The notes beneath the pieces were generated by a model that saw nothing but the letters and a program-made list of their open reading frames with translations, ran no database searches and had not been told where the DNA came from. A program made the position numbers and the translations under genes. A DNA stretch of 64,000 bases from Patescibacteria group bacterium (GTDB taxonomy: Bacteria > Patescibacteriota > Patescibacteriia > Patescibacteriales > UBA12075): assembly GCA_018897195.1 (NCBI GenBank), contig JAHILH010000005.1, positions 128,745 to 192,744 of the forward strand, given 5' to 3'. Numbering within the stretch: the first letter of the stretch is position 1; every line of letters starts with the position of its first letter. Shown piece by piece: positions 1,578 through 60,297 of the stretch.

Positions 1578-1630
1578 TCCCTCTCCTTGCCAGGAGAGGG
1601 TTAGGGTGAGGTAGATTTTCGGCGAGGGAG
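1578..1630 (-). repeat. GC-rich palindromic repeat, family 1 (CCCTCTCC-n-GGAGAGGG + GGGTGAGG) with partial second unit
   Basis: tccctctccttgccaggagagggttagggtgagg...ggcgagggag; near-identical to 37551-37600. Confidence 0.85.
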
Positions 1631-2273: not shown

Positions 2274-2310
2274 CCCCTCACCCCGACCCTCTCCCGCCGG
2301 GGCGAGGGAG
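2274..2310 (+). repeat. GC-rich palindromic repeat, family 1 (CCCTCACCCCGACCCTCTCCCGCCGGGGCGAGGGAG)
   Basis: Direct read; same unit at 2903, 35346, 37601. Confidence 0.9.
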
Positions 2311-2902: not shown

Positions 2903-2941
2903 CGCCCCCTCACCCCAACCCTCTCCCGCGGGGCGAGGGAG
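2903..2941 (+). repeat. GC-rich palindromic repeat, family 1
   Basis: cgccccctcaccccaaccctctcccgcggggcgagggag. Confidence 0.9.
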
Positions 2942-2944
2942 ACT

Positions 2945-3436
2945 TTAAATTTGTTCCAAAATTTTCAATTCAAATGTCCCAGTCTCTATTTCCCAATAAG
3001 CAAAGGTGGCCATAAAGAAGTTACCCCCCAGTGTTCCCGGATTTATATATTGAGTATTGCCTTTTTTTTGAATATGCGGTCGATGCGTGTGCCCGTAAAA
3101 AACTAAGTTACAAGTGCACATTTCTTCCGTTTGACTAAAAAATTCCGGCTCATGGCACATGCCAATATTAAATCCCTCCAATACAAACTTACCAAAACGA
3201 CCATGGTCGGTATAATTTTTATAATATTCCAATTCCTCTTCATAATAAATATCCGCATTACCTCGGATAATGTGGATATTATTTTTGAAACCTTCTGATA
3301 AATATTTTATTGTTTCACTATTAGCTACATCACCACAACAAATAAGCTGATCGATGGTATTGTCACGGCACCACTGCAAACATTTTTCGAGATTAGGGAT
3401 ATTGTCGTGAATGTCGGAGATGATGACTATTTTCAT
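2945..3436 (-). CDS. YfcE/MJ0936-type metallophosphoesterase
   Basis: MKIVIISDIHDN, CCGDV, GNADI, YGHTH motifs; start set at ATG 3436 (the upstream TTG extension reads through a palindrome). Confidence 0.85.
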   Translation of the reverse strand: MKIVIISDIHDNIPNLEKCLQWCRDNTIDQLICCGDVANSETIKYLSEGFKNNIHIIRGNADIYYEEELEYYKNYTDHGRFGKFVLEGFNIGMCHEPEFFSQTEEMCTCNLVFYGHTHRPHIQKKGNTQYINPGTLGGNFFMATFAYWEIETGTFELKILEQI

Positions 3437-3493
3437 GTGGCATATAACCCGAATCCGCCGTGGCGGATCCAAATATTACAAATAATTATGTGA

Positions 3494-10371: not shown

Positions 10372-11235
10372 TTATTCAATAATTTCATTAATTTTTCGTA
10401 ATTTAGATGAATCGATTTTAAAATAATTCCAAGAATTTTGAATTCTAAAATTATTACCTTCATGACGATGAAAATCAGAACCACCAGTTTCAATCAAATC
10501 AAACTCACGAGCCATTAATTGCGCGTACACTACCGCGCCATAACTATGATGTGGTGACAAAACCTCAATACCATCGATTCCCATGTGCTTCAAATCCTCC
10601 AATACTGGTTTTCGAAGTTGGTTGTACTTGCCCGGATGATTAAAAATAATTTTTCCCCCTAGATCTTTTTTCAATTTTAAAATTCTTTCCAAGCTGACAT
10701 AAGTATTATCCAAAAAACTAGTTTCCTTGTTGTAAAAATATTTATTAATAACTTCATTTTCACGTAAAATATTAGTTTGCATTTCCGCCATCACCCTGGC
10801 AGCATTTTCCGGAACGGCTAAAAAGCGGTCAACAACTTGATTGACGGGAATATAATGATTGAATTCGTCCAAGATATTGTCAACGTCAATTTCAAAACCC
10901 TTGACCACTAATTTATTCAAGGCTTCACGAACTTTTTTACGACGTCGCACCTGCGTATCGCGCAACAACTTGTGTAATTGCGGGTTACGATCATCAAAAT
11001 TATACCACAAAAAATTCAAGCGCTTATTTTTATGCTTCACGTACAACTCCAAACCCGTAATTGGCTTGATACCTTTAGCAATACAGGCAGCGCGAAATTC
11101 ATCCAAGCCACCGACGGTGTTATGATCAGTCAAAGCCGCCACCTTGATACCCTTGGAATGAATAAAATCCACCACCTCGGTTGGCGTTAAATATCCATCT
11201 GAATAAGTTGAATGAAGTTGTAAATCAATTAACAT
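10372..11235 (-). CDS. PHP-domain phosphoesterase
   Basis: DLQLHSTYSDG, ALTDHNTVGG, GGSDFH metal-binding motifs; start at ATG 11235. Confidence 0.8.
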   Translation of the reverse strand: MLIDLQLHSTYSDGYLTPTEVVDFIHSKGIKVAALTDHNTVGGLDEFRAACIAKGIKPITGLELYVKHKNKRLNFLWYNFDDRNPQLHKLLRDTQVRRRKKVREALNKLVVKGFEIDVDNILDEFNHYIPVNQVVDRFLAVPENAARVMAEMQTNILRENEVINKYFYNKETSFLDNTYVSLERILKLKKDLGGKIIFNHPGKYNQLRKPVLEDLKHMGIDGIEVLSPHHSYGAVVYAQLMAREFDLIETGGSDFHRHEGNNFRIQNSWNYFKIDSSKLRKINEIIE

Positions 11236-11334: not shown

Positions 11335-12354
11335 TTATATATTTAAATTCTGTTTAACTCTATCAATTAGGATTTGCGCCCTCTCTGGATTAGGGTCGTA
11401 TTTCAATAAAAGAAAAGTGGCAGTTCTGATTGCCGTCCAGTTATAATAATTATCAATTCTTTTTTGTAAATCTTCTGTTAGTTTTACTCTGCTACTCTTG
11501 AAATAACTATCCAAAAATAAATTTTTAATTTTTTTCTGGTAACTCTCGTCGGCAATTTTTCGACTACACATATACTCTAGTTGTTGTGAAAATGTTCCTA
11601 AGTCTCTTGCGAAATCTGTAAACGATAAATCCGTAAAATCGATAACCCCAATTTTTCTCTTGCCCATTCTAATTACATTCTCTGGGTGTGCATCACCATG
11701 AACCAGCCATCGCTTACTTGTTGACGATAAAAACTCTTCTTCATTTTTTACAAAAATTGCATACGCCTTTACATAAAAATCATAATATTCCGGAAAATCA
11801 TTTTGTATTCTTTCTAGTGTATGCTCTACACCCGGATACACTGTCTTGATACGACTATTATCTTCGTTGAATCGTTGTTCATCAGAAACTTTTAATTTGT
11901 GCAAACGAGAGAACCACTTAGCTGTCTTGGGCACCATATCTTCAATGATTGGAAAATTACTCTCTCTAATAAAATAATATAAATTACTGCCTTTAACGCC
12001 GCGATAAAATGTGGCTCGAAAATAGTCGGAGTAATAAAGTGGATGCGGGATACTTAAATAGCCGTCGCCAAATCCATGACTCCATAGAAATTTCAAATTA
12101 TCATAAACATTCTTTCGAGGCTCAGTAGAATGAGCTGTACAAAAAATTGGTAGCTCACGGCGCTTACCTTTTTTATCAACAAACGTAGTTACAAACTCAA
12201 TCACCACATGATACGTAGTTTCCCAAATAAGCTTTTTCCAAGGTTTAATAACTACTTTTTTAATATCAACAAAATCTGGATAACTTGGCAAAATCCTTTT
12301 TTTTAAATATGTAATAACATATTCATCATCCAATAATTGATTTATTCTATTCAT
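11335..12354 (-). CDS. Aminoglycoside-phosphotransferase/choline-kinase-fold kinase (substrate unknown)
   Basis: 339 aa; catalytic HGDAHPENV and VIDFTD motifs of the APH/protein-kinase-like superfamily. Confidence 0.75.
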   Translation of the reverse strand: MNRINQLLDDEYVITYLKKRILPSYPDFVDIKKVVIKPWKKLIWETTYHVVIEFVTTFVDKKGKRRELPIFCTAHSTEPRKNVYDNLKFLWSHGFGDGYLSIPHPLYYSDYFRATFYRGVKGSNLYYFIRESNFPIIEDMVPKTAKWFSRLHKLKVSDEQRFNEDNSRIKTVYPGVEHTLERIQNDFPEYYDFYVKAYAIFVKNEEEFLSSTSKRWLVHGDAHPENVIRMGKRKIGVIDFTDLSFTDFARDLGTFSQQLEYMCSRKIADESYQKKIKNLFLDSYFKSSRVKLTEDLQKRIDNYYNWTAIRTATFLLLKYDPNPERAQILIDRVKQNLNI

Positions 12355-12369
12355 AACTTTCCAGTATCG

Positions 12370-12402
12370 CTATTCCCGCTCTTGCGGAAATACAGGTACC
12401 AC
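12370..12402 (+). repeat. Degenerate copy of repeat family 2
   Basis: ctattcccgctcttgcggaaatacaggtaccac versus gtcattcccgcgaaggcgggaatccaggcgccac. Confidence 0.5.
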
Positions 12403-13719: not shown

Positions 13720-15186
13720 TTATTTCAACTTCAACGCCTTCTTGTATAGCGCCAAATATTTCTTCGCTGGTATTTCCCAGCTATTTGATTCTTGCATACC
13801 GCGCACCACTAAATCCTTCCATGTTTCTTTGTCTTTATACACTTCTAGCGCCCTAATGATCGCTCCATACAATGAAAATTTATCAAACCCGGCAAAAGAA
13901 AAACCAGTTCCTCTTTTTACTGTTGGGTTAAAATTACGCACAGTATCATTCAGACCACCGATTTTGCGAACGATTGGCACACAGCCATAACGCATGGCGA
14001 TTAATTGGTTAATACCACAAGGCTCGTGATGTGACGGTAATAAGAAAAAATCTGAGCCAGCATAAACCAAGGTCTCATATTTCTGATTCTCCTCGTGCGA
14101 AGGTATCACGGCCAACTTGTTAGGGTATTTCTTGGCAACTTTTTGCAACTCCTTGATGTATTTTTTATCACCAGCGCCAATCACGATCATTTGCAAATTC
14201 AACTCCATTAATTGCCAGATAATTTTTAGTATTAATTCAAAGCCTTTCTGAAAGGTCACACGCGACGTTGAACAAATAAGTGGAACATCGGGATCAATTG
14301 TTAAGCCAAATTTTTCCTGAACAAATAATTTATTTTCTTTTTTGTTCTGACTTTTTTGATAATCATATTTCTTGTGTAATCCCGGATCTTCTAATGGGTT
14401 ATAAGCCTTATAATCAATACCGTTCACAATGCCAAACAGGCGATCTTCTCGATTTTTCAAAACACGATGCAAGTCCTGCCCAATATTCTTTGTAATTATC
14501 TCTTCCCGATATTGCTCACTTACCGTGTTTACCATATCAGCTGACAAAATTGCTCGCTTGGCAAAATTAAGATATTTAATATCCGGATCAGTGATATGGG
14601 GAATTTTTTTACGCCCAAAGTCCTTTTTCTCTATTGGCACCTCCCACCAATTCATTCCCAGCTGAAAAATTAAATTGTGAATTGTAAATATAGTCTTTGC
14701 GTTGCGCAATGTTTTGGAATAGCGGAAATCTGTTTTTAAATAAAATGGGATTAAACCAGTCTGCCAATCATGACAATGAACTATATCAGCTTCAAACTTT
14801 AACATTGAAATCAATTTTAAAGCCGCTACATCAAAAATCAAAAAACGCTCATTTTCACGATCAGACCCATATAGGGTTTTTTTCTTGGAAAAATATTTCG
14901 TATTCTCAATAAAATAAACTGGCAAATTTTTCAATAAATAACCCTTCCAATAATTAACAACCACTTCCTCTTTTGAATTTAAAGAAACTTTTACATTTTT
15001 ATAAAGTAGTTTTAAATCATATTTTTCTTTATCAATCACTTGTCCATACAAGGGTGTAATGCAAATAATCTCATGACCCAGCCTGGACAAGGCCTTGGGT
15101 AAACTACGAGCCACATCAGCCAAACCACCAGACTTAGAAAAAGGCGAAAGCTCTGCAGATATTGAAACTATTTTTAATTTATTCAT
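13720..15186 (-). CDS. glgA: Glycogen/starch synthase (GT5), paralogue 2
   Basis: 488 aa; ELSPFSKSGGLADV, PSHHEPCGI motifs. Confidence 0.9.
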   Translation of the reverse strand: MNKLKIVSISAELSPFSKSGGLADVARSLPKALSRLGHEIICITPLYGQVIDKEKYDLKLLYKNVKVSLNSKEEVVVNYWKGYLLKNLPVYFIENTKYFSKKKTLYGSDRENERFLIFDVAALKLISMLKFEADIVHCHDWQTGLIPFYLKTDFRYSKTLRNAKTIFTIHNLIFQLGMNWWEVPIEKKDFGRKKIPHITDPDIKYLNFAKRAILSADMVNTVSEQYREEIITKNIGQDLHRVLKNREDRLFGIVNGIDYKAYNPLEDPGLHKKYDYQKSQNKKENKLFVQEKFGLTIDPDVPLICSTSRVTFQKGFELILKIIWQLMELNLQMIVIGAGDKKYIKELQKVAKKYPNKLAVIPSHEENQKYETLVYAGSDFFLLPSHHEPCGINQLIAMRYGCVPIVRKIGGLNDTVRNFNPTVKRGTGFSFAGFDKFSLYGAIIRALEVYKDKETWKDLVVRGMQESNSWEIPAKKYLALYKKALKLK

Positions 15187-15715: not shown

Positions 15716-16441
15716 TTAAATATTCGCATTAGTATAATAATCAGCCACATCATCCGAATAATCCAAACTATCAATAAAATTTTCCACTTTCTCTTTGTCC
15801 TCATCACTTAATTCCAATTGCTCCTTAGCCACAAATTCAATTTCTGCCGACTCGGTCGCAACGCCCTGACTTTCCAAAAATTTCTGTACTACCTGCAAAT
15901 CACCCATTGTTGTATAAATAGTCACACCACCTTCTTCGCTCACAATATCATCCGCCCCCGCTTCAATTAAATCTAATTCCAAATCATCTATCTTAATACT
16001 TTTCTCTTTCAAGCTTTCGGCTGAAACACTAATCACGCCCCTCTTGTCGAAATTCCACATTACAGAACCCAACGACCCACCAATTTTGGTAAATAAATGA
16101 CGAATTTGCGCCGCACTCCGATTCTTATTATCTGTCAATGTCTTGATAATAAACTGCGCATTCGCTGGACCAACGCCTTCATAATACAACTCCTCTATCA
16201 CCCCACCGTCCAAAGCCCCGGTTCCTTTTTTAATCGCCCGCTCAATATTCTCCTTCGGCATATTCGCGGCTTTGGCCTTATCAACGGCCATACGTAAAGT
16301 GAAGTTTGTATCGAGGTCACCTCCCTTTTCCCGCGCTGCAATTGTAATTAAATTCGATAATTTTGTAAAAATAGCACCTCTTTTAGCATCAACCACCGCT
16401 TTGGCTCTTTTAGTTGTCGCCCATTTAGAATGTCCTGACAT
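15716..16441 (-). CDS. yebC: YebC/PmpR family DNA-binding regulator
   Basis: MSGHSKWATTKRAKAVVDAKRG N-terminus; 241 aa. Confidence 0.92.
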   Translation of the reverse strand: MSGHSKWATTKRAKAVVDAKRGAIFTKLSNLITIAAREKGGDLDTNFTLRMAVDKAKAANMPKENIERAIKKGTGALDGGVIEELYYEGVGPANAQFIIKTLTDNKNRSAAQIRHLFTKIGGSLGSVMWNFDKRGVISVSAESLKEKSIKIDDLELDLIEAGADDIVSEEGGVTIYTTMGDLQVVQKFLESQGVATESAEIEFVAKEQLELSDEDKEKVENFIDSLDYSDDVADYYTNANI

Positions 16442-16592
16442 ATATTTAGCTTTAATTATAATTCACTCTCCTTATAATGACACGGATGGAATAAAAAATC
16501 AAGTTTTTATTTTTTTTTCATCACAAAATTACCTTGATTACTTAAATAAAAAATGTTAAAATTAACACATTAATTATCTTAAAATAAATCAT

Positions 16593-17660
16593 ATGGATGC
16601 CAAAAAAGCTTTATTTGAATATAAACAAAAAGTTGACGTCGAATTAGAAAGTTTTTTTCAAAAAGTCATTAGCGAAAATGAAAAAATCGACGTTGATATT
16701 GCCGGTGCAATGGATTATGTTCGACAAATCACCATGGCTGGCGGCAAACGTGCTCGAGCTGCTTTTATGTATTACGGATATTTAGCGGCGGGCGGCACAA
16801 GAAAAAAAGATATAACCAGAGCTAGTATTAGCACTGAGATCATGCATTCTTTTGCCCTAATCCATGACGACATTATTGACCAAGACAGTCTTCGTCATGG
16901 TATTACCACGACACATGTTCACTACAGCAAGATGGCTAAAAAATATTTCAAAAATAAAAATGCTGCACATTTTGGCGATTCTATGGCCATTGTCGTTGGT
17001 GACATGATAAATGCTCTAGGAAATCGTGTTTTATTAGAGGCAAATTTTTCACCACACCTAGTCGCTAAGGCAGCGCACCGTCTGCAAAACATAATTTTTA
17101 TAACCATTGTCGGTGAGACTGAAGATATTTTAATTGAAAATCGTGGTCAAGCAACTGAAAAAGAAATTTTGCAAATGTATAAAAATAAAACTGCCACATA
17201 CACCATTGAGGGTCCATTACACATAGGGGCAATTCTGGCTGGGGCTGATGAAAAATTTTTACTAGCCCTGAGCAACTACGCCATCCCCACGGGCATTGCT
17301 TTTCAAATTCAAGATGATGTTTTAGGAATCTTTGGAACAAAAAGTAAAACAGGAAAATCCATTGATTCGGACATTAGGCAAGGCAAACAAACTATTTTAG
17401 TGGTCAAGGCCCAAGAAAAAGCTAACAAAAAACAAAAAACTATTCTTAAAAATTGCCTAGGCAACAAGAATTTAACCGAAACCGATTTAGCTGATTTTAA
17501 ACAAGTAATCATTGATACTGGTTCATTGAAATACGCCCAGGCTATGGCAACGAAATTAATCACCAAGGCAAAGAATGAAATTACTAATCAAAAAATATCC
17601 AAAGAAGCTAAGGACTTCTTAATAAATATTGCCGACTACATGCTTAATCGTGAAATTTAA
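16593..17660 (+). CDS. Polyprenyl diphosphate synthase (trans-IPPS)
   Basis: Two Asp-rich motifs, LIHDDIIDQD and FQIQDDVLG. Confidence 0.88.
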   Translation: MDAKKALFEYKQKVDVELESFFQKVISENEKIDVDIAGAMDYVRQITMAGGKRARAAFMYYGYLAAGGTRKKDITRASISTEIMHSFALIHDDIIDQDSLRHGITTTHVHYSKMAKKYFKNKNAAHFGDSMAIVVGDMINALGNRVLLEANFSPHLVAKAAHRLQNIIFITIVGETEDILIENRGQATEKEILQMYKNKTATYTIEGPLHIGAILAGADEKFLLALSNYAIPTGIAFQIQDDVLGIFGTKSKTGKSIDSDIRQGKQTILVVKAQEKANKKQKTILKNCLGNKNLTETDLADFKQVIIDTGSLKYAQAMATKLITKAKNEITNQKISKEAKDFLINIADYMLNREI

Positions 17661-20569: not shown

Positions 20570-20603
20570 CCTCACCCTGCCCTCTCCTGGCCAGGAGAGG
20601 GAG
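20570..20603 (+). repeat. GC-rich palindromic repeat, family 1, in topA 5' leader
   Basis: cctcaccctgccctctcctggccaggagagggag (perfect 11-bp palindrome arms). Confidence 0.9.
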
Positions 20604-25413: not shown

Positions 25414-25468
25414 TTTTTATTTTAAAATCAAAAAAATAGCTCCAATTAATCGGAACTATTTTTCTATG

Positions 25469-25541
25469 TGCGCCCAACAGGATTTGAACCTGTGACCGTT
25501 TGCTTAAGAGGCAACTGCTCTACCAGCTGAGCTATGAGCGC
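25469..25541 (-). tRNA. tRNA-Lys (anticodon CTT), CCA not encoded
   Basis: Minus strand GCGCTCATAGCTCAGCTGGTAGAGCAGTTGCCTCTTAAGCAAACGGTCACAGGTTCAAATCCTGTTGGGCGCA folds as a cloverleaf; loop CT-CTT-AA. Confidence 0.9.
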
Positions 25542-25577
25542 ATGTATATGACATAAAATTACTCTTATGTATTTGTG

Positions 25578-25651
25578 TGGCTGAGGAGAGACTTGAACTC
25601 TCGACCTTAGCGTTATGAGTGCTACGCTCTAACCAGCTGAGCTACCCAGCC
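25578..25651 (-). tRNA. tRNA with CAT anticodon (elongator Met type; Ile2-lysidine not excluded), CCA not encoded
   Basis: GGCTGGGTAGCTCAGCTGGTTAGAGCGTAGCACTCATAACGCTAAGGTCGAGAGTTCAAGTCTCTCCTCAGCCA; lacks the 3 G-C anticodon-stem pairs of initiators. Confidence 0.85.
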
Positions 25652-25669
25652 CTATATTTCTGCTCTATG

Positions 25670-25743
25670 TGCACCTGACAGGATTCGAACCTGTAACCTC
25701 TTGGTCCGAAGCCAAGCACTCTATCCAGTTGAGCTACAAGTGC
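25670..25743 (-). tRNA. tRNA-Arg (anticodon TCG), CCA not encoded
   Basis: GCACTTGTAGCTCAACTGGATAGAGTGCTTGGCTTCGGACCAAGAGGTTACAGGTTCGAATCCTGTCAGGTGCA; loop CT-TCG-GA. Confidence 0.9.
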
Positions 25744-26950: not shown

Positions 26951-27070
26951 TGTTCTGGCGGCGACCTACTTTCCCAGGGCTCAGGCCCAAGTATCATCAG
27001 CGCTGAGAGGCTTAACTTCTGAGTTCGGAATGGGATCAGGTGTGACCCTCTCGCTAGTGCCACCAAAACA
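26951..27070 (-). rRNA. rrf: 5S ribosomal RNA
   Basis: Minus strand ...ttggtggcactagcgagagggtcacacctgatcccattccgaactcagaagttaagcctctcagcgctgatgatacttggg...gtaggtcgccgccagaaca. Confidence 0.93.
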
Positions 27071-27140
27071 ATGATTTCTTTATCAATGTGTAATATAATA
27101 TTATTCAAATAACGACCAGAAACTTACTTTAAACCCAAAA

Positions 27141-30186
<3,046 letters not shown>

Positions 30187-33703: not shown

Positions 33704-34399
33704 TTATTTTTCTACTATGGCCAGATTTATTTCTTTCTGTGTTTCCAACACTGCTTCAACTGGATTGGTCGCCATGGTTATCGGGCGACCAATAACAAGA
33801 TAATCTGCGCCCATTTTTACCGCATCATAGGGCGTGGTAATTCTGGACTGATCATCATTGGGATCAAGATGCCACTTTGGACGAATACCGGGAGTCACTT
33901 TCTTCAATTTATTCAACTCGGGAAACTGAGACAGAAACTTAAGCTCCATTGGTGAGCAGACAATTCCATAAACCCCGGCGAGTACAGCATTTCTGGCAAA
34001 TTGCAAAACTTTTGCCTTGACAGGCATGCCGTAATTAATATTACACTCTTCTTCATTCAATGAAGTTAAAACTGTAACAGCCAGAATTTTTGAATCGCCA
34101 GCCGCTTCCACGGCCGCCCTCATCATCGCCACACCACCAGAGGCATGAACCGTTATTAAAGACGGTTTATAGAAGATATGCTTTTTAACACGATTCTTGA
34201 CCGTATTGGGAATGTCGTGAAACTTGGCATCATCCATAACCTCAGCATGTCTGCTAAGCACTTCAAGGATTGTAACCCCAAGACCTCCATCGAGTAAATC
34301 GTTGGCCTTAAGAATTACACCGGTGCCTTCTAGGTTTTTTGCCAAAACCAATGCATCTTCGGTATCCATTCCATCTAATGCCACAATAATTTTCGACAT
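33704..34399 (-). CDS. pyrF: Orotidine 5'-phosphate decarboxylase
   Basis: IVALD...LKAND...DAKFHDIPNTV...VIGRPI. Confidence 0.85.
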   Translation of the reverse strand: MSKIIVALDGMDTEDALVLAKNLEGTGVILKANDLLDGGLGVTILEVLSRHAEVMDDAKFHDIPNTVKNRVKKHIFYKPSLITVHASGGVAMMRAAVEAAGDSKILAVTVLTSLNEEECNINYGMPVKAKVLQFARNAVLAGVYGIVCSPMELKFLSQFPELNKLKKVTPGIRPKWHLDPNDDQSRITTPYDAVKMGADYLVIGRPITMATNPVEAVLETQKEINLAIVEK

Positions 34400-34535: not shown

Positions 34536-37508
34536 CTACAACTTCCGAAACTCACAAATATCATTAAAATCACAATACTTACACAAAATCGACGGCTTGG
34601 CCGGGAATTCGCCTTTGTTTATTTCTTTGATATTCTTCACGATATTTTCTTTTAGCTTTTCTATTTCTTTGTCCGTGCCGAGGAATTCCATTTCGGTGTT
34701 GTCGTCGAGATAATAGAAGACGAGGGAGTCGACTTTGTAGCCGAAGATTTCTTCGGCGGCGATTTGGTAGATGAAGAGTTGAGCCTTGTCTTCGAAGGTT
34801 AGTTTGTCTTTGGGATTACCGGTTTTGTAATCAACGATGCGGACTTTGCCGTCGACGGCATCGACGCGATCGACAACGCCGCGGATGGTGTAGATGTCCT
34901 CATCAGATTTCAATTTTATATTGAAACCTTTTTCTAAATGTTTAATGCTTGGCCAATTGTCTTTATGTTTGGCGTAAAAAGTTTTTAGAATTTCTTTGCC
35001 CTTGGCGCGATATTCTTCCTTTTGTTCCGCGTCATTATACCAATCATCAATCCAAGATTCTTCGTAAATTTTCAGCACCTCTTCCCAAGTTACATTCTCA
35101 TCGCCCTTCTTGGGCTCGGTAAATAAATCTTGTTGCCCAAAACCTTTTTTCTCTACCACTAATTCAAACAGTTTTTGTAAAGTGCTGTGCATGGTGCGAC
35201 CGAAGGAGAAAACGCCTTTGCCTTGGCGGGGGATTTTTAGGATATGGGCAAAGCGATATTGGTAGGGGCAACTTGAAAAGGCGGTTAGTTGGGTGTAGGA
35301 ATAATGCTTCGGAGGTATGTAGTCAATTTTATCATTCTTCGATGACGCCCCCTCACCCCGACCCTCTCCCGCGGGGCGAGGGAGTTTTAATAGATTATCA
35401 ATAACTGGTAATTCTTCTGCCACCGCCAAATCTTTTTTCGTTTTTTTCACTTCTTCTTTAACCAATCCTGCTTCAAGCAAAAATCGTGATGGCTTTTTAT
35501 CACGCGCACCACCATAATTCTTGCTCCATGAAAAATATAAACCAGCTTTCGCGCGCGTCGCGGCGACGTAAAACAAACGACGTTCTTCTTCGATATGCAT
35601 ATCGCCTTGCGGTAAATTTTCTTTGATCAGAGCGTCAGGGATCAAGATTTTGTCTTTACGTTCGATAGTTGGGAAACGCTTATCAACCATGCCGACGATG
35701 AAGACATATTTAAACTCAAGACCCTTGGAGCCGTGGATTGTCATCACCTTGATTGTCTCTGGTCCAGCTTCGACATCCGGCGTCACTGAGCCTTGCTCGC
35801 CTGACTCTAATTCCATGCGGAATTCACTTAAGAAATTTTTAACACTTTTGTCATCATTGGCAACTTCAAAAGTTAAGACGCGCTTGATAAATTTATTAAG
35901 ATAACCAATCTGTTCACGGCTTTGCTTTTCTGGTAAATCCATTAAGTGTTGTAAATAACCAGTCTCATTTATAAAGGTCACCAATACTTCACGTACTGGT
36001 TTTGTTTTAACTAATTGTGTATGCTTGCTGATATTTTCTAAAACCACCCCTACTCTTTTTATAAAATCAACTCCAAAGTTTAGTTGGTTGGCATTTTTTA
36101 AAGCTTCGTATAATGACCAAGATTTTTTATTAGCTAGGTGATTAAGATCAACTAATTCCTTATGAGTAAATTTATAAATCGGAAAATTTAAAACACGATA
36201 AAGATAAATACTCTCGTGATAATTATCTAACATCCGTAAATACGCCACCGCATCCATAATCACTGGCTTGTTATATAATCCGCGTGATGCGTAAAAAACA
36301 TAAGGTAGGTTCGCTTCTTCCAAGGCAACACACACATCATTAGCACTATCGTTGGCCCGCACCAAAATACCAAAGTCACCCCAATTCGCCTCCGCGTCCT
36401 TCACTTTCAAATCAGCCATCTTCTCCACCACCAAACGAATCTCATCTTCCAAGTCAGTCCCTTCTAATAATTCAATCTCACCCGTCTCGCCGATATTCGC
36501 TTTCAGCTTCTTACTCAATTTCCCATCACCCTGTTGTTGCAATTGATATTCCAATCGATTCGGATTGTTGTGTTGAATAAAATCATAAGACAAATCCAAA
36601 ATATTTTGCTTATTGCGATAATTATTGGTCAGCACTAATTCCTGCGCCTGCGGATAGTCAGTTTTAAAATGCAAAATATTCGCTACTGAACCGCCACGGA
36701 ATTTATAAATCGATTGATCATCATCGCCCACGACTACTAAATTAGAATCGCCGGCCGCTAATAATTTTATCAATTCATACTGCGCCAAATTCGTATCTTG
36801 AAATTCATCCAATAAAATATACTTAAACTGATTTTTATATTTCGCCAAAATATTTGGTCGCTCTCTAAATAATTTCAAACAATAATTAATCAAATCACCA
36901 AAGTCCAAGGCACTGTTATCCAAAAGTAATTGTTGATAAACTTTATAAGCGTTCGCCACCTCGGCAATGCGTTTAATTTCTTGCTCGTCATCATCTTTTA
37001 ACTTACTCGCAAAAGCAACATACTCCTCCGCAGTAACATCTTCGTCTTTAGCACGTGAAAAATGTTTCACCAAATCATGAATAAACTTCGTCGGATTCCC
37101 AAGCGGTCGATAATATTCCAAATTAAACTTATCCAAGTTTCGACGCACCATCGCCCACTGTTCATATTCATTCAAGAGCTTGAAATTACCCGGCAAGCCA
37201 ATCTCAATTGCATGCTCGCGCAAAATGCGTTCACCAAAGCTATGAAAAGTGGATATCCACAAATCTACATAACCAAAAGGCAATAATTTATCAACGCGCT
37301 CCTCCATCTCCTGTGCCGCCTTTTCGGTAAAGGTTAACGCTAAAATCTCGTCCGTCTTTGCCCAGCCTTGCTCAATGATATAAGCAATCCGCTTCGTCAC
37401 CACCGTCGTCTTACCAGTTCCAGCCCCCGCCACAATCAATAAAGGACCGCCGTTATGAGTAACCGCCTGTTCTTGTTCTTTATTTAAACCTTTTAATAGT
37501 TCTGACAT
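34536..37508 (-). CDS. UvrD/PcrA-type helicase fused to a C-terminal PD-(D/E)XK (AddB/Cas4-like, Fe-S) nuclease
   Basis: 990 aa; motif I VAGAGTGKTT, motif II LLDEFQDTN; C-terminus with Cys (FSSCPYQY) + CKYCDFNDIC (CxxCx5C) and DRVD..DYK nuclease core. Confidence 0.88.
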   Translation of the reverse strand: MSELLKGLNKEQEQAVTHNGGPLLIVAGAGTGKTTVVTKRIAYIIEQGWAKTDEILALTFTEKAAQEMEERVDKLLPFGYVDLWISTFHSFGERILREHAIEIGLPGNFKLLNEYEQWAMVRRNLDKFNLEYYRPLGNPTKFIHDLVKHFSRAKDEDVTAEEYVAFASKLKDDDEQEIKRIAEVANAYKVYQQLLLDNSALDFGDLINYCLKLFRERPNILAKYKNQFKYILLDEFQDTNLAQYELIKLLAAGDSNLVVVGDDDQSIYKFRGGSVANILHFKTDYPQAQELVLTNNYRNKQNILDLSYDFIQHNNPNRLEYQLQQQGDGKLSKKLKANIGETGEIELLEGTDLEDEIRLVVEKMADLKVKDAEANWGDFGILVRANDSANDVCVALEEANLPYVFYASRGLYNKPVIMDAVAYLRMLDNYHESIYLYRVLNFPIYKFTHKELVDLNHLANKKSWSLYEALKNANQLNFGVDFIKRVGVVLENISKHTQLVKTKPVREVLVTFINETGYLQHLMDLPEKQSREQIGYLNKFIKRVLTFEVANDDKSVKNFLSEFRMELESGEQGSVTPDVEAGPETIKVMTIHGSKGLEFKYVFIVGMVDKRFPTIERKDKILIPDALIKENLPQGDMHIEEERRLFYVAATRAKAGLYFSWSKNYGGARDKKPSRFLLEAGLVKEEVKKTKKDLAVAEELPVIDNLLKLPRPAGEGRGEGASSKNDKIDYIPPKHYSYTQLTAFSSCPYQYRFAHILKIPRQGKGVFSFGRTMHSTLQKLFELVVEKKGFGQQDLFTEPKKGDENVTWEEVLKIYEESWIDDWYNDAEQKEEYRAKGKEILKTFYAKHKDNWPSIKHLEKGFNIKLKSDEDIYTIRGVVDRVDAVDGKVRIVDYKTGNPKDKLTFEDKAQLFIYQIAAEEIFGYKVDSLVFYYLDDNTEMEFLGTDKEIEKLKENIVKNIKEINKGEFPAKPSILCKYCDFNDICEFRKL
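35346..35384 (+). repeat. Family 1 GC-rich repeat inside the helicase-nuclease CDS (in frame)
   Basis: cgccccctcaccccgaccctctcccgcggggcgagggag; translated on minus strand as LPRPAGEGRGEGAS in the inter-domain linker. Confidence 0.9.
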
Positions 37509-37550: not shown

Positions 37551-37583
37551 TCCCTCTCCTGGATAGGAGAGGGCAGGGTGAGG
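37551..37583 (-). repeat. Family 1 repeat (CCCTCTCC-n-GGAGAGGG subtype)
   Basis: tccctctcctggataggagagggcagggtgagg. Confidence 0.9.
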
Positions 37584-37600
37584 TAGATTTTCGGTGACGG

Positions 37601-37638
37601 CTCCCTCACCCCGACCCTCTCCCGGCGGGGCGAGGGAG
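37601..37638 (+). repeat. Family 1 repeat (CCCTCACCCC...GGGGCGAGGG subtype)
   Basis: ctccctcaccccgaccctctcccggcggggcgagggag. Confidence 0.9.
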
Positions 37639-37648
37639 AAGCCTTGAA

Positions 37649-38869
37649 TTAAAAAATCTTAACGACCCCATATTGTCCATCAAACCCAGGCGCCACTGTT
37701 AATTCTCCCGCGCGCATTCGGCGTATACCTTCCGCAATTTTATCAGTTGTCACCGCCGCAATTTTCTCAATCGGTGCATCAAGTAAAATATCAATTTCAC
37801 TAGCTTGTAATTCACTAATTAGCTTATCGTATTCTACTAAAACTTTTTTAGCTTGTGGTGATTTCACTCCCACCGCCTCAGCGATAATTTTATTCAAGCC
37901 TACTAATTTTTTAAAACTCGGCTTGCCTTTTAACTGCTTCCCAACCTTACGATTTGCTAATTCATTCACGCGATAATCAACACCAATTGTCAGTGCCCGG
38001 TTACAAACTGGACACAATCCCTTTTTCTCTTTTGTCTCAACCGGAGACAAGCACGCACCACAAGCCCGATGTCCGTCCCAGTGATACATACCTTCTTCCG
38101 GATAAAATTCAATCGTATAATCCAAAAATGATTTTTTATTTTCACCTTTAATTATTTGATAAATCGCATCATAGGTCACCTCTTCATTAAACTCAAACAC
38201 ATTTGCTTCGCGCGCTAAATTTTGCAATGAATGCGCATCTGAATTAGACAACAAAGTTAATTTATCCAAAGCTGACACGCGCCAATTCATTTCAGGGTCC
38301 GATGACAAACCGGTCTCATAAGCAAAAATTTGATTAGTATATTCCCCAAAACATTCTTCCAGCGAATCAAAACCCGACTTCGAACCAAAGACCGAAAACC
38401 ACGGTGTCCAAATGTGCGCCGGATAAATCAAAAATTTCGGATCAATCGAAAAACACAACTGACACAAAGTCGGTACACTCATTCCCAAAATCGGACGACC
38501 ATCCGAACGAATATTATAATGCTTACCCAAAAAATCATTCAGCTTTTGGACCGCTACTACATTCGGCGCATGAATCACAATATGAATCCGTCGCGCTCGT
38601 CCGCCCTGCTTATAAATCAAAGCCACCTCGGTGCTCAAAATAAACTTCACACCATTATCATCTTCCTGTAATTTATAAAGACCGCTACTCCCAATCTCAA
38701 CCAGTTCATCCTTAATCGATTTGAACCAAGCGGGATGCGTAAAATCGCCCGTCCCCACAATATCAATTCCTTTTATCAGGCACGTTTTAGCAATATTAGC
38801 TAAGGTTAAGTCCCGCGAGCAAGCTCGGGAATATCGAGAATGAATATGAAAATCAGCTATTTGACGCAT
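37649..38869 (-). CDS. Endonuclease Q-like PHP-domain protein (TIGR00375-like)
   Basis: N-terminal DFHIHSRYSRACS PHP motif, central Cys cluster CGAC...CPVC; start at ATG 38869; family call from memory. Confidence 0.6.
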   Translation of the reverse strand: MRQIADFHIHSRYSRACSRDLTLANIAKTCLIKGIDIVGTGDFTHPAWFKSIKDELVEIGSSGLYKLQEDDNGVKFILSTEVALIYKQGGRARRIHIVIHAPNVVAVQKLNDFLGKHYNIRSDGRPILGMSVPTLCQLCFSIDPKFLIYPAHIWTPWFSVFGSKSGFDSLEECFGEYTNQIFAYETGLSSDPEMNWRVSALDKLTLLSNSDAHSLQNLAREANVFEFNEEVTYDAIYQIIKGENKKSFLDYTIEFYPEEGMYHWDGHRACGACLSPVETKEKKGLCPVCNRALTIGVDYRVNELANRKVGKQLKGKPSFKKLVGLNKIIAEAVGVKSPQAKKVLVEYDKLISELQASEIDILLDAPIEKIAAVTTDKIAEGIRRMRAGELTVAPGFDGQYGVVKIF

Positions 38870-38925
38870 AAAAAATTGGTTCAATTTACCTATTTAATAT
38901 ACCACTTACATTATTAAAAATCAAA

Positions 38926-48005: not shown

Positions 48006-48029
48006 CCCTCTCCTGCCGGGGCGAGGGAG
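48006..48029 (+). repeat. Short family 1 repeat
   Basis: ccctctcctgccggggcgagggag. Confidence 0.8.
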
Positions 48030-53025: not shown

Positions 53026-53032
53026 ACTTCCT

Positions 53033-53210
53033 CCGTCATCCCCGCGAAGGCGGGGATCCAGGTTCCACGGTAGATGAATTAAAAAATTATAGTAATTTAT
53101 CTCAAAAAAAGATTGTCTATACAAATAGACAATCTTTTTTTTATTTTAACTCGTTTAGTTCTAAAAAAGGAATTCGAGGTGCCTGGATTCCCGCCTTCGC
53201 GGGAATGACG
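53033..53210. repeat. MITE-like unit: inverted pair of family 2 repeats (GTCATYCCCGCGAAGGCGGGRATCCAGG) enclosing the intergenic terminator
   Basis: 53033-53070 ccgtcatccccgcgaaggcggggatccaggttccacgg; 53176-53210 is the reverse complement of cgtcattcccgcgaaggcgggaatccaggcacctc. Confidence 0.85.
53110..53135. terminator. Bidirectional terminator between LCP gene and elp3
   Basis: agattgtctat-acaa-atagacaatct flanked by A7/T8. Confidence 0.8.
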
Positions 53211-56694: not shown

Positions 56695-56844
56695 CTCCCT
56701 CGCCCCGCCAGGAGAGGGTTAACGTAATCCTCGTCCAACTAATAATAAAGGGGACGGGGTGAGGGAGCATTATTAAAGACATTTCCGCTTATTTTCATCA
56801 CCCGTTCTACCTCACCCCAGCCCTCTCCTACAAAGGAGAGGGAG
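56695..56844. repeat. Cluster of three family 1 repeat units/fragments
   Basis: 56695-56718 ctccctcgccccgccaggagaggg; 56750-56767 ggggacggggtgagggag; 56810-56844 cctcaccccagccctctcctacaaaggagagggag. Confidence 0.85.
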
Positions 56845-60076: not shown

Positions 60077-60297
60077 GTCATTCCCGCGAAGGCGGGAATC
60101 CAGGCGCCACAATTATTGGATTTATAATTATAGAGACTAATTTTGATACAAACATTAATAATAAATAATGCTTTGTAAATTTAAGTTAAGGAATTTGAAT
60201 TCCCAACTATATAAAAAGTTATAAGCTTTTATATAATTCTCCTTATACTGAAAACAATCTACGAGGTGCCTGGATCCCCGCCTTCGCGGGGATGACG
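60077..60297. repeat. MITE-like unit: inverted pair of family 2 repeats around a 152-bp AT-rich core
   Basis: 60077-60110 gtcattcccgcgaaggcgggaatccaggcgccac; 60263-60297 is the reverse complement of cgtcatccccgcgaaggcggggatccaggcacctc. Confidence 0.85.

Follow-up and report, generated by a model that had tools for sequence, protein, structure and literature searches.

The helicase-nuclease gene and its interdomain linker

In the present work we analysed a stretch of 64,000 nucleotides from a Patescibacteria group bacterium (assembly GCA_018897195.1, contig JAHILH010000005.1, positions 128,745 to 192,744; hereafter, the window), and in particular a guanine-cytosine (GC)-rich repeat of 39 bp that lies in frame within a gene coding for a helicase fused to a nuclease. 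The coordinates of the gene, of the repeat and of the related elements are reported in Table 1. The Pfam domains UvrD-helicase/UvrD_C cover amino acids 8-663 of the encoded protein and PDDEXK_1 (together with a weaker Cas4 match) covers amino acids 736-986; the PcrA structure 1pjr aligns to amino acids 3-680. The alignment of 30 orthologues revealed that the glycines and the threonine of the Walker A motif, D880/D893/K895 and C747/C976/C979/C985 are invariant, and these residues lie on both sides of the insert. We take the four cysteines to be the Fe-S "staple" arrangement of AddB/Cas4-type nucleases. The ratio of nonsynonymous to synonymous divergence (dN/dS) between the window gene and its two closest orthologues is 0.033-0.045, at a dS of about 1. 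According to these sequence comparisons, the gene is intact, functional and under strong purifying selection.

The exact 39-mer, CGCCCCCTCACCCCGACCCTCTCCCGCGGGGCGAGGGAG, is located at positions 35346-35384 and encodes LPRPAGEGRGEGA, that is, codons 709-721 of the open reading frame (ORF). The original prediction had placed it between the helicase and the nuclease modules with the frame preserved, and both the Pfam domains and the PcrA alignment confirm this. The linker that hosts it is of different length and sequence in every one of the 30 aligned orthologues and in all 91 parsed linkers; the orthologues come from Patescibacteria (Falkowbacteria, Parcubacteria). In an AlphaFold2 model, residues 687-728 are coil with a predicted local distance difference test (pLDDT) value below 50; the model is a moderate one (mean pLDDT 69.7, predicted template modelling score 0.39, built on a 30-sequence alignment).

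The segment had been described as a repeat of the intergenic type, and this holds: the 39-mer recurs with a single mismatch (38 of 39 identical positions) between genes at 2903-2941, against zero such copies expected from 100 shuffles. It might be supposed that the similarity is due to chance, that the repeat is a product of mis-assembly, or that the gene is a pseudogene whose frame is open by accident; GC-rich repeats can, in principle, cause assembly errors, and nothing else was found in favour of this explanation. However, the protein is identical to MBU4216498.1 and other NCBI entries annotated as "ATP-dependent helicase [Candidatus Parcubacteria bacterium]" and is present on seven independently assembled contigs from different assemblies, including the 196-kb contig of GCA_018902835.1; the exact 39-mer was confirmed in both of the contigs that were fetched out of those seven, and mis-assembly is therefore excluded. 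With the low dN/dS values, the conservation of all catalytic residues before and after the insert and the match to the intergenic copy also against it, an artefact of any of these kinds is hardly credible.

The repeat family in the window

On the minus strand, the segment 35346-35384 consists of three blocks separated by loops of two and three nucleotides; in mRNA sense, this layout corresponds to the "type B mm" of the E. coli TMECO motif, as given in Table 1 of PMC4666352. Copies were located by arm-motif scans and by exact regular expressions. A looser hairpin-core pattern (CCCTCTCCCNNNGGGNGAGGG, up to three mismatches) gave six matches over both strands, corresponding to four loci, versus 0.03 expected; by the exact expressions the window harbors eight full three-block copies and two half copies, so that the family has more than two members and is larger than originally noticed. 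The nine remaining copies are all intergenic, and only 35346-35384 lies within a long ORF; the claim that the unit otherwise occurs only between genes is thus correct for the window but not for the family, which has nine more in-frame copies elsewhere.

The C-rich strand is on the plus strand in the full copies at 2276-2310, 2908-2941, 20570-20603, 35351-35384, 37604-37638 and 56810-56844, while those at 1579-1611 and 37552-37583 have the opposite orientation. Intergenic copies of the window were found 3, 6, 13 and 18 nucleotides downstream of stop codons. The density of the family is about one copy per 6-8 kb here versus one per 200 kb in E. coli (about 25-fold). Scanning 31 ORFs of the window with Pfam, which covers 64 kb of the genome, retrieved neither a transposase nor a RAYT.

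The composite intergenic element sits just upstream of the helicase start. The same inverted pair, with the spacer TAGATTTTCGGTGACGG, was found in the metagenome loci L136 (1147-1233) and L137 (6069-6153), and the segment 1579-1630 resembles a truncated composite in which the second repeat has been mostly deleted. Moreover, the near-identical repeats 35351-35384 and 37604-37638 are in direct orientation and flank the promoter region plus the part coding for the helicase core (about 2.2 kb); recombination between them would remove the helicase core and keep the nuclease part.

Table 1. Features of the helicase-nuclease gene, copies of the repeat in the window, in-frame copies in other genomes and hairpin elements in the linkers of orthologues.
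Feature	Locus	Position	Strand	Details
PcrA/UvrD-type superfamily 1 (SF1) helicase fused to PD-(D/E)XK Cas4/AddB-like four-cysteine nuclease	Window	34536..37508	-	990 amino acids, intact
Interdomain linker, amino acids 681-735	Window	35304..35468	-	Hypervariable among orthologues, predicted disordered
Repeat core (BoxC/PIT/TM type)	Window	35346..35384	-	mRNA strand CTCCCTCGCCCC-GC-GGGAGAGGG-TCG-GGGTGAGGGGGCG
Probable tail of the inserted unit	Window	35334..35345	-	(G)TCATCGAAGAAT, encodes SSKN; without counterpart in L001
Canonical G-quadruplex motif GGGAGAGGGTCGGGGTGAGGGGG	Window	35348..35370	- (mRNA-sense)	Regular expression
Intergenic copy	Window	2908..2941	-	6 nucleotides after stop of gene 2945-3472; 38/39 over 2903-2941
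Intergenic copy	Window	2276..2310	-	18 nucleotides after stop of gene 2326-2880; regular expression
Intergenic copy, variant with GGAGAGGG arms	Window	1579..1611	+	3 nucleotides after stop of gene 11-1576; remnant 1612-1630 follows
Intergenic copy	Window	20570..20603	-	Upstream of topA; regular expression
Intergenic copy	Window	56810..56844	-	Between convergent genes; half copy 56697-56718 and fragment 56756-56765 nearby
Intergenic half copy	Window	48006..48027	-	Hairpin part only; regular expression
Composite intergenic element	Window	37552..37638	.	Inverted pair 37552-37583 (G-rich on +) and 37604-37638 (C-rich on +), spacer TAGATTTTCGGTGACGG
In-frame copy, IleRS	L022, Devosia			PSPPRGEGQGEGA
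In-frame copy, HsdR	L041, uncultured bacterium (38% GC)			SPSPLGEGWGEG
In-frame copy, Eco57I-like methylase	L053, Flavobacteriaceae			LTPALSKGEGEG; sole antisense case
In-frame copy, lipoyl-E3 linker	L064, Polaromonas			PSPAGEGRGEG
In-frame copy, LigA	L079, Planctomycetota			PSPPWGEGRGEG
In-frame copy, CN-hydrolase	L012, Ginsengibacter			APSPSERAGGEA
In-frame copy, LigA	L133, low-GC metagenome contig			LAPAGEGRGEGA
In-frame copy, CysRS	L131, low-GC metagenome contig			KLPRPAGEGWGEG
In-frame copy, prepilin peptidase	L133, low-GC metagenome contig			LPLPAGEGWGEGA
Helicase linker element	L123 (orthologue P0074)	12296-12389		94-nucleotide element, TGTCAT...ATGACA ends
Helicase linker element	L124			Nested C6/G6 hairpin
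Helicase linker element	L125			86-nucleotide element, architecture as in L123
Helicase linker element	L126			Small hairpin

Origin of the insert

The orthologue P0001 (locus L001), which shares 95% of the amino acids and 86% of the nucleotides with the window gene, lacks the repeat, and its linker reads DDKLLTIKKSPLVDKQAVDKIDY. On the contrary, P0002 (L002; 93% amino acid identity) has the repeat at the identical place, in the same frame and in the same orientation, with 24 extra nucleotides that split the middle block (LPRPAGDLPAVQQAEGRGEGLS). This additional stretch (L002 8143-8166, approximately GACCTGCCAGCTGTGCAGCAGGCT) is partly palindromic and adds the residues DLPAVQQA; the outer hairpin arms are intact. 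The repeat is absent from the outgroup P0073 (L129; 77% identity) and from 26 other aligned orthologues (about 60% identity), and none of the orthologues without the repeat has a homologous peptide at this position; the original prediction had named the presence of such a peptide as its refutation, and the prediction is thus not refuted in this way. L001 and L129 have linkers of equal length, with 21 codons from AAATTATT to GACTAC; therefore, the repeat-bearing state is derived. The idea that the L001 linker might represent a decayed repeat was rejected, given this same equal length and the DxKLL start that it shares with L129. As for the proposal that the insertion is unique to one lineage, its derived state and its absence from L001, L129 and the 26 others stand, but it is not unique, as the related species represented by L002 carries the repeat in the same place.

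The tail that follows the 39-mer, (G)TCATCGAAGAAT, agrees with the spacer GTCACCGAAAAT adjoining the intergenic copy 37604-37638 at 11 of 13 bases; tentatively, the inserted unit probably extends about 12 nucleotides beyond the 39-mer, to position 35334. About 17 codons (the repeat plus the spacer-like tail) stand in place of about 13, with a net gain of about four amino acids. The event is a replacement and not a clean 39-bp indel, and the simple insertion of 13 amino acids assumed at first has to be abandoned.

When the whole gene is rooted with L129, the informative nucleotide sites favour the grouping of the window with L001 (89 versus 48 and 44), whereas those of codons 700-749 favour that of the window with L002 (11 versus 2 and 0). 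The identity along the gene is a mosaic: for example, L001 matches the window at 95% and L002 at 67% in alignment codon columns 161-200, versus 80% and 93%, respectively, in columns 281-320. This mosaic suggests recombination among species differing by a dS of about 1. Two separate insertions at the same nucleotide, in the lineages of the window and of L002, were considered and rejected on account of the identical site, frame and orientation and of the grouping at codons 700-749. The simplest history would be a single replacement event, with the linker segment later spread by homologous recombination among related species.

Invariance of the repeat arms and strand bias

Across a dS of about 1, the repeat arms of the window and of L002 are identical at 36 of 36 positions. 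For comparison, the ten adjacent non-repeat linker codons are identical at 18 of 30 positions, gene-wide third positions are about 65% identical and the whole gene 85%; 36 identical sites would occur by chance with a probability of about 0.003 at the gene-wide rate and of about 1e-8 at the linker rate. This pattern suggests that the repeat sequence is either selected as a nucleic acid or corrected from other copies.

The first possibility would imply that the repeat is kept for a role at the nucleic acid level, either in the mRNA, where a hairpin or a G-quadruplex would make ribosomes pause from one domain to the next or would stop 3'-5' decay, or in the DNA, as a chromosomal structure or a protein-binding site; in both versions the peptide would represent a by-product. 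Besides the invariance of the arms across diverged flanks, the predicted folding agrees with such a role: the hairpin is stronger when folded from the sense strand (-28.5 kcal/mol, z -2.7) than from the antisense strand (-21.9 kcal/mol), because G-U pairs form in the former orientation only. The mRNA strand also carries the canonical G-quadruplex motif, which competes with the hairpin between the C-block and the G-block. Against this role stand the closest orthologue and about 90 others, which work without the repeat, and the middle block of L002, split by 24 nucleotides; moreover, according to PMC4666352, the E. coli PIT/TMECO elements have neither promoter nor terminator activity and do not form a detectable triplex in vivo. 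An intrinsic terminator was rejected, since the promoter/terminator scan made no terminator-like call at the repeat on either strand and only TTTT follows on the antisense one. The search against Rfam at gathering thresholds retrieved only rRNA and tRNA matches, none of them at the repeat.

The copies found in other coding sequences (CDSs) bear on the same issue. On the G-rich strand one frame contains a TGA; as read from the sequence, the remaining five frames of both strands are open. In-ORF repeats were searched for among the loci from species-level and exact-type metagenome scans (eight loci for the latter), and the ORFs were checked with Pfam. This confirmed nine more copies that are read in frame within Pfam-verified proteins (Table 1); L094 (a molybdopterin oxidase-like ORF, PPLPPGEGWGEG) and other candidates from GC-rich genomes were left out of this count. 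In Polaromonas (L064), tandem repeat-like peptides (PSPQPAPASGRGS and PSPAGEGRGEG) are embedded in an Ala/Pro linker leading from the lipoyl to the E3 domain, another naturally flexible linker that took up repeats.

The sense strand has the C-block first in nine of the ten independent in-CDS events (helicase included), and the GEGxGEG frame is used in eight. With a prior of 0.4 (two of five open frames), the probability of nine or more out of ten is about 0.002, for a sample that is small and non-random. A similar orientation emerges between genes, where the copies at most 35 nucleotides from a stop codon are sense to the upstream gene in nine cases and antisense in two. This bias would fit the transcription of 3' hairpins, as proposed for REPs (PMC3733652), and speaks in this sense for the nucleic acid role; a strand-specific mechanism of insertion fits it equally well. 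Taken together, the RNA-level reading is a live minority option that draws indirect support from the invariant arms and the strand bias, and a function of the nucleic acid, in either version, appears possible, though not the likely cause of what is observed here.

Other hairpin repeats in the same linker

In at least 20 of the 91 orthologue linkers we found peptides that are typical of translated hairpin repeats, of the types ICHSRE(N/S)GNPE...LDPRLRGDD, PLIKGNKGG...PLTPFVKGG and VIAASEPQSRK...GSRVKPGMT. The DNA of four of these orthologue linkers (L123-L126) contains a palindromic element in each case, with different sequences. Additional copies of the L123 element were found in intergenic DNA and within two ORFs; copies of the L124 element lie inside pheS, pheT and at a second site of the helicase gene. 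In L124, another Patescibacteria contig, the nested CCCCCC/GGGGGG hairpin occurs at 11178-11210, 14591-14631, 15917-15957, 16552-16581 and 16976-17050, within the genes called there: twice in that of the helicase-nuclease and at several sites in those of PheS and PheT. Unrelated hairpin repeats are found in this linker in other Patescibacteria, which points to its repeated colonisation.

In the window itself the L123-type arm, CGTCATCCCCGCGAAGGCGGGGATCCAGG, occurs twice between genes, at 53030-53070 and 60261-60297. This arm, part of the 94-nucleotide element that is translated in the helicase linker of P0074, represents a second GC-rich hairpin family of the window and looks like a "CGTC-tagged" REP.

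A different explanation is an exaptation of the Pro/Gly/Glu/Arg peptide, which would now work as a hinge or spacer joining the helicase to the nuclease, as one version of the original prediction had it. The peptide does lie exactly in the linker, its flexible and hydrophilic composition would suit a hinge, and the GEGxGEG frame recurs in other proteins. However, the linker pre-existed, hypervariable and at nearly the same length; selection on amino acids cannot account for the identity at synonymous sites; the L002 copy tolerates eight extra residues in the middle of the peptide; and other lineages have quite different repeat-derived peptides in this place, or none. Exaptation is thus very improbable. 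A literature search on the encoded peptides (GEGWGEG, GEGRGEG and others) retrieved nothing relevant.

Many orthologues (P0012, P0016, P0022, P0037, P0050, P0056, P0059, P0110, P0117 and P0073/L129 among them) are about 1400 amino acids long and harbor an intein in the helicase part (PF14890, in some together with PF01079 Hint); the window gene has no intein. An intein or splicing reading of the insert itself was likewise rejected, because 13-17 residues without splicing motifs are too small for an intein.

Genomic context

Two genes that flank the helicase gene in the window, the 411-residue ORF at 37649-38884, which adjoins the repeat pair, and pyrF (33704-34399), have no counterpart at the corresponding places of L001 and L002, a comparison that covers three genomes. 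The indel of the former borders the repeat pair. This ORF has no Pfam match in the window and a precomputed MJ0043_C match in L127; pyrF codes for the orotidine 5'-monophosphate decarboxylase, and L002 has a RelB/ParE toxin-antitoxin pair in its place.

Elsewhere in the window, 23S and 5S rRNA genes followed by three tRNA genes were found (26953-30182 and 25468-25743), and no 16S rRNA is present in the 64 kb. With 3040 nucleotides versus the 2925 of the model, the 23S match may hold a small insertion. The first 3 kb have a GC content of 45-47%, versus about 36% for most of the window, and include an ABC-ATPase-like ORF (11-1576) with several GC-rich patches; the segment 1-3000 may be of foreign origin.

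Proposed explanation and its implications

To account for the family identity, position, frame and derived state of the insert, and for its presence, in several assemblies, within a constrained host gene, we propose that a BoxC/PIT/TMECO copy, together with about 12 nucleotides of a composite spacer, replaced about 13 codons of the linker and has been tolerated there, not exapted. This reading, which we regard as probable, starts from a near-universal repeat made up of CCCTC(G/T)CCC, GGGAGAGGG and GGGTGAGGG, whose single strands can fold as a hairpin, as an intrastrand triplex or as a G-quadruplex and whose copies normally sit a few bases past stop codons. One such copy, with the spacer of a composite element, would have taken the place of codons in a disordered and hypervariable linker. 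The new piece is a multiple of three, and the frame used is the only one on the G-rich strand that avoids the TGA inside GGGTGAGGG and also gives small, flexible and hydrophilic residues (GEGxGEG); the ORF therefore stayed open and the enzyme functional. The peptide would be functionally neutral, and we infer that the arms are invariant through a process that keeps all the copies of the family uniform, be it gene conversion or selection on the hairpin. In this respect the original prediction of a tolerated repeat insertion in a linker was essentially right.

Three points weigh against this explanation. A neutral passenger should have decayed, yet the arms are unchanged while their flanks have diverged; the strand and frame bias of the in-CDS copies is not obviously explained by the tolerance of the peptide alone; and the disorder of the linker is supported rather than proven, the structural model being only moderate.

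A broader and more speculative reading is that the BoxC/TM repeats represent a pan-bacterial counterpart of the Rickettsia palindromic elements (RPEs), with recurrent strand-specific entry into CDSs of housekeeping and DNA-repair proteins (the G-rich strand being sense and read as ...P.PxGEGxGEG...), an actively maintained sequence and, in the Patescibacteria linker, a preferred site for at least four unrelated hairpin families. We consider it rather unlikely. If it were true, it would imply a sequence-specific function or a copy-correction mechanism for BoxC/TM, and the preferred linker would hint that the repeats are connected with enzymes acting on DNA ends and hairpins.

The function and the spread of the BoxC/TM repeats have been a question since the 1990s. 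An in-frame copy represents a natural experiment in this sense, since the synonymous and linker sites that surround it give a local neutral clock; measured against this clock the arms are unchanged, which argues for an influence on the sequence at the level of the nucleotides. The data also indicate that the ultra-small genomes of Patescibacteria are rich in the BoxC/TM family, and that they carry this and other hairpin repeats in essential genes (helicase-nuclease, LigA, CysRS, PheS/T, prepilin peptidase); these hosts are of the types already reported for the REPs of Proteobacteria. From the point of view of annotation, such inserts explain low-complexity GC-rich patches in AT-rich genes and might serve as lineage markers. 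The leads of wider interest are the maintenance at the nucleotide level within a CDS, the bias in strand and frame, and the repeated colonisation of the linker.

Comparison with known repeat systems

The unit of the window matches block for block the 23 E. coli TMECO sequences in PMC4666352. This repeat, first known in E. coli as BoxC, later received the name of PIT element and finally that of "TMECO" intrastrand triplex motif (Bachellier et al., 1990s; Hoyne/Maher, 2000; Holder et al., 2015, PMC4666352); it is defined by CCCTC[G/T]CCC, GGGAGAGGG and GGGTGAGGG with loops of 1-6 nucleotides and a total length of 34-37 nucleotides. Holder et al. report many copies of the motif in more than 260 genomes, with more variable flanking DNA and no associated mobility genes, a triplex that is stable in vitro and undetected in vivo, and an absence of activity as promoter or terminator. 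In another work this sequence was interpreted as a G-quadruplex/hairpin switch (bioRxiv 10.1101/032615).

The two sets have the same blocks and spacing (CCCTCGCCCCTCCGGGGAGAGGGCCGGGGTGAGGGG in E. coli versus CCCTCGCCCC-GC-GGGAGAGGG-TCG-GGGTGAGGGG in the window). Both are dispersed and multi-copy, and occur singly or as inverted pairs without an associated transposase; the neighbourhood is structurally variable between relatives in the published set and, judging from three genomes, may be so here. They differ in that the helicase copy is translated, whereas the E. coli copies are described there as "always located intergenically"; this wording describes the copies of E. coli and does not set a structural criterion. 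A further difference is the host, a Patescibacteria genome with 38% GC, from a group outside the study as far as its available part goes. Searching one genome per species with the three-block pattern gave at least 120 loci; the phyla among the matches listed include Proteobacteria, Bacteroidota, Cyanobacteria, Planctomycetota, Chloroflexota, Verrucomicrobiota, Actinomycetota, Omnitrophota, Elusimicrobiota and others.

In-frame palindromic repeats are reportedly the hallmark of the RPEs (Ogata et al., Science, 2000, a work cited in PMC3733652). RPE-1 is 100-150 bp long and limited to Rickettsia. Like the RPEs, the repeat studied here belongs to a palindromic family that lies both between genes and in frame within functional genes of a small genome, in loops or linkers where it is tolerated; unlike them, it is 34-39 bp long, has an unrelated sequence and is found in nearly all phyla. 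Several features that characterise both RPEs and intragenic REPs were found at the helicase locus: the family is also intergenic, the ORF is open, the insert is absent from orthologues of an otherwise conserved gene under purifying selection, and it lies in a flexible interdomain linker.

MITEs, in turn, are small non-autonomous repeats that can sit in genes and add amino acids (reviews by Delihas, PMC2229807 and PMC3184786). Identity with MITEs was rejected, since the flanks of four near-identical copies have neither target-site duplications nor terminal inverted repeats beyond the internal hairpin.

The GTAG/CGTC REPs catalogued inside ORFs by Di Nocera et al. (2013, PMC3733652) often reside in genes of repair and replication (UvrABC, UvrD/Rep helicase, RecBCD, Pol I, ligase) and in tRNA synthetases, and different REPs occupy nearly the same recB site in two Xanthomonas species. 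These authors propose that the REPs entered flexible linkers neutrally and, as another option, that they might affect repair; a role as transcribed 3' hairpins has been put forward for REPs (PMC3733652). The classes of host genes are the same here (helicase-nuclease, LigA, IleRS, CysRS), while the structure differs: a REP is a simple palindrome that bears a tetranucleotide tag at its end, and the repeat of the window is composed of three blocks, with CGTC next to it in only two of the four copies compared. The GTAG class is, moreover, tied to RAYT transposases, and no RAYT was seen among the 31 ORFs scanned in the window. A literature search combining Patescibacteria with palindromic in-frame repeats retrieved no specific paper. 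Palindromic repeats that are read in frame within repair genes or tRNA synthetases are thus already known from RPEs and intragenic REPs, and the case described here differs from them in the repeat family and in the phylum of the host.

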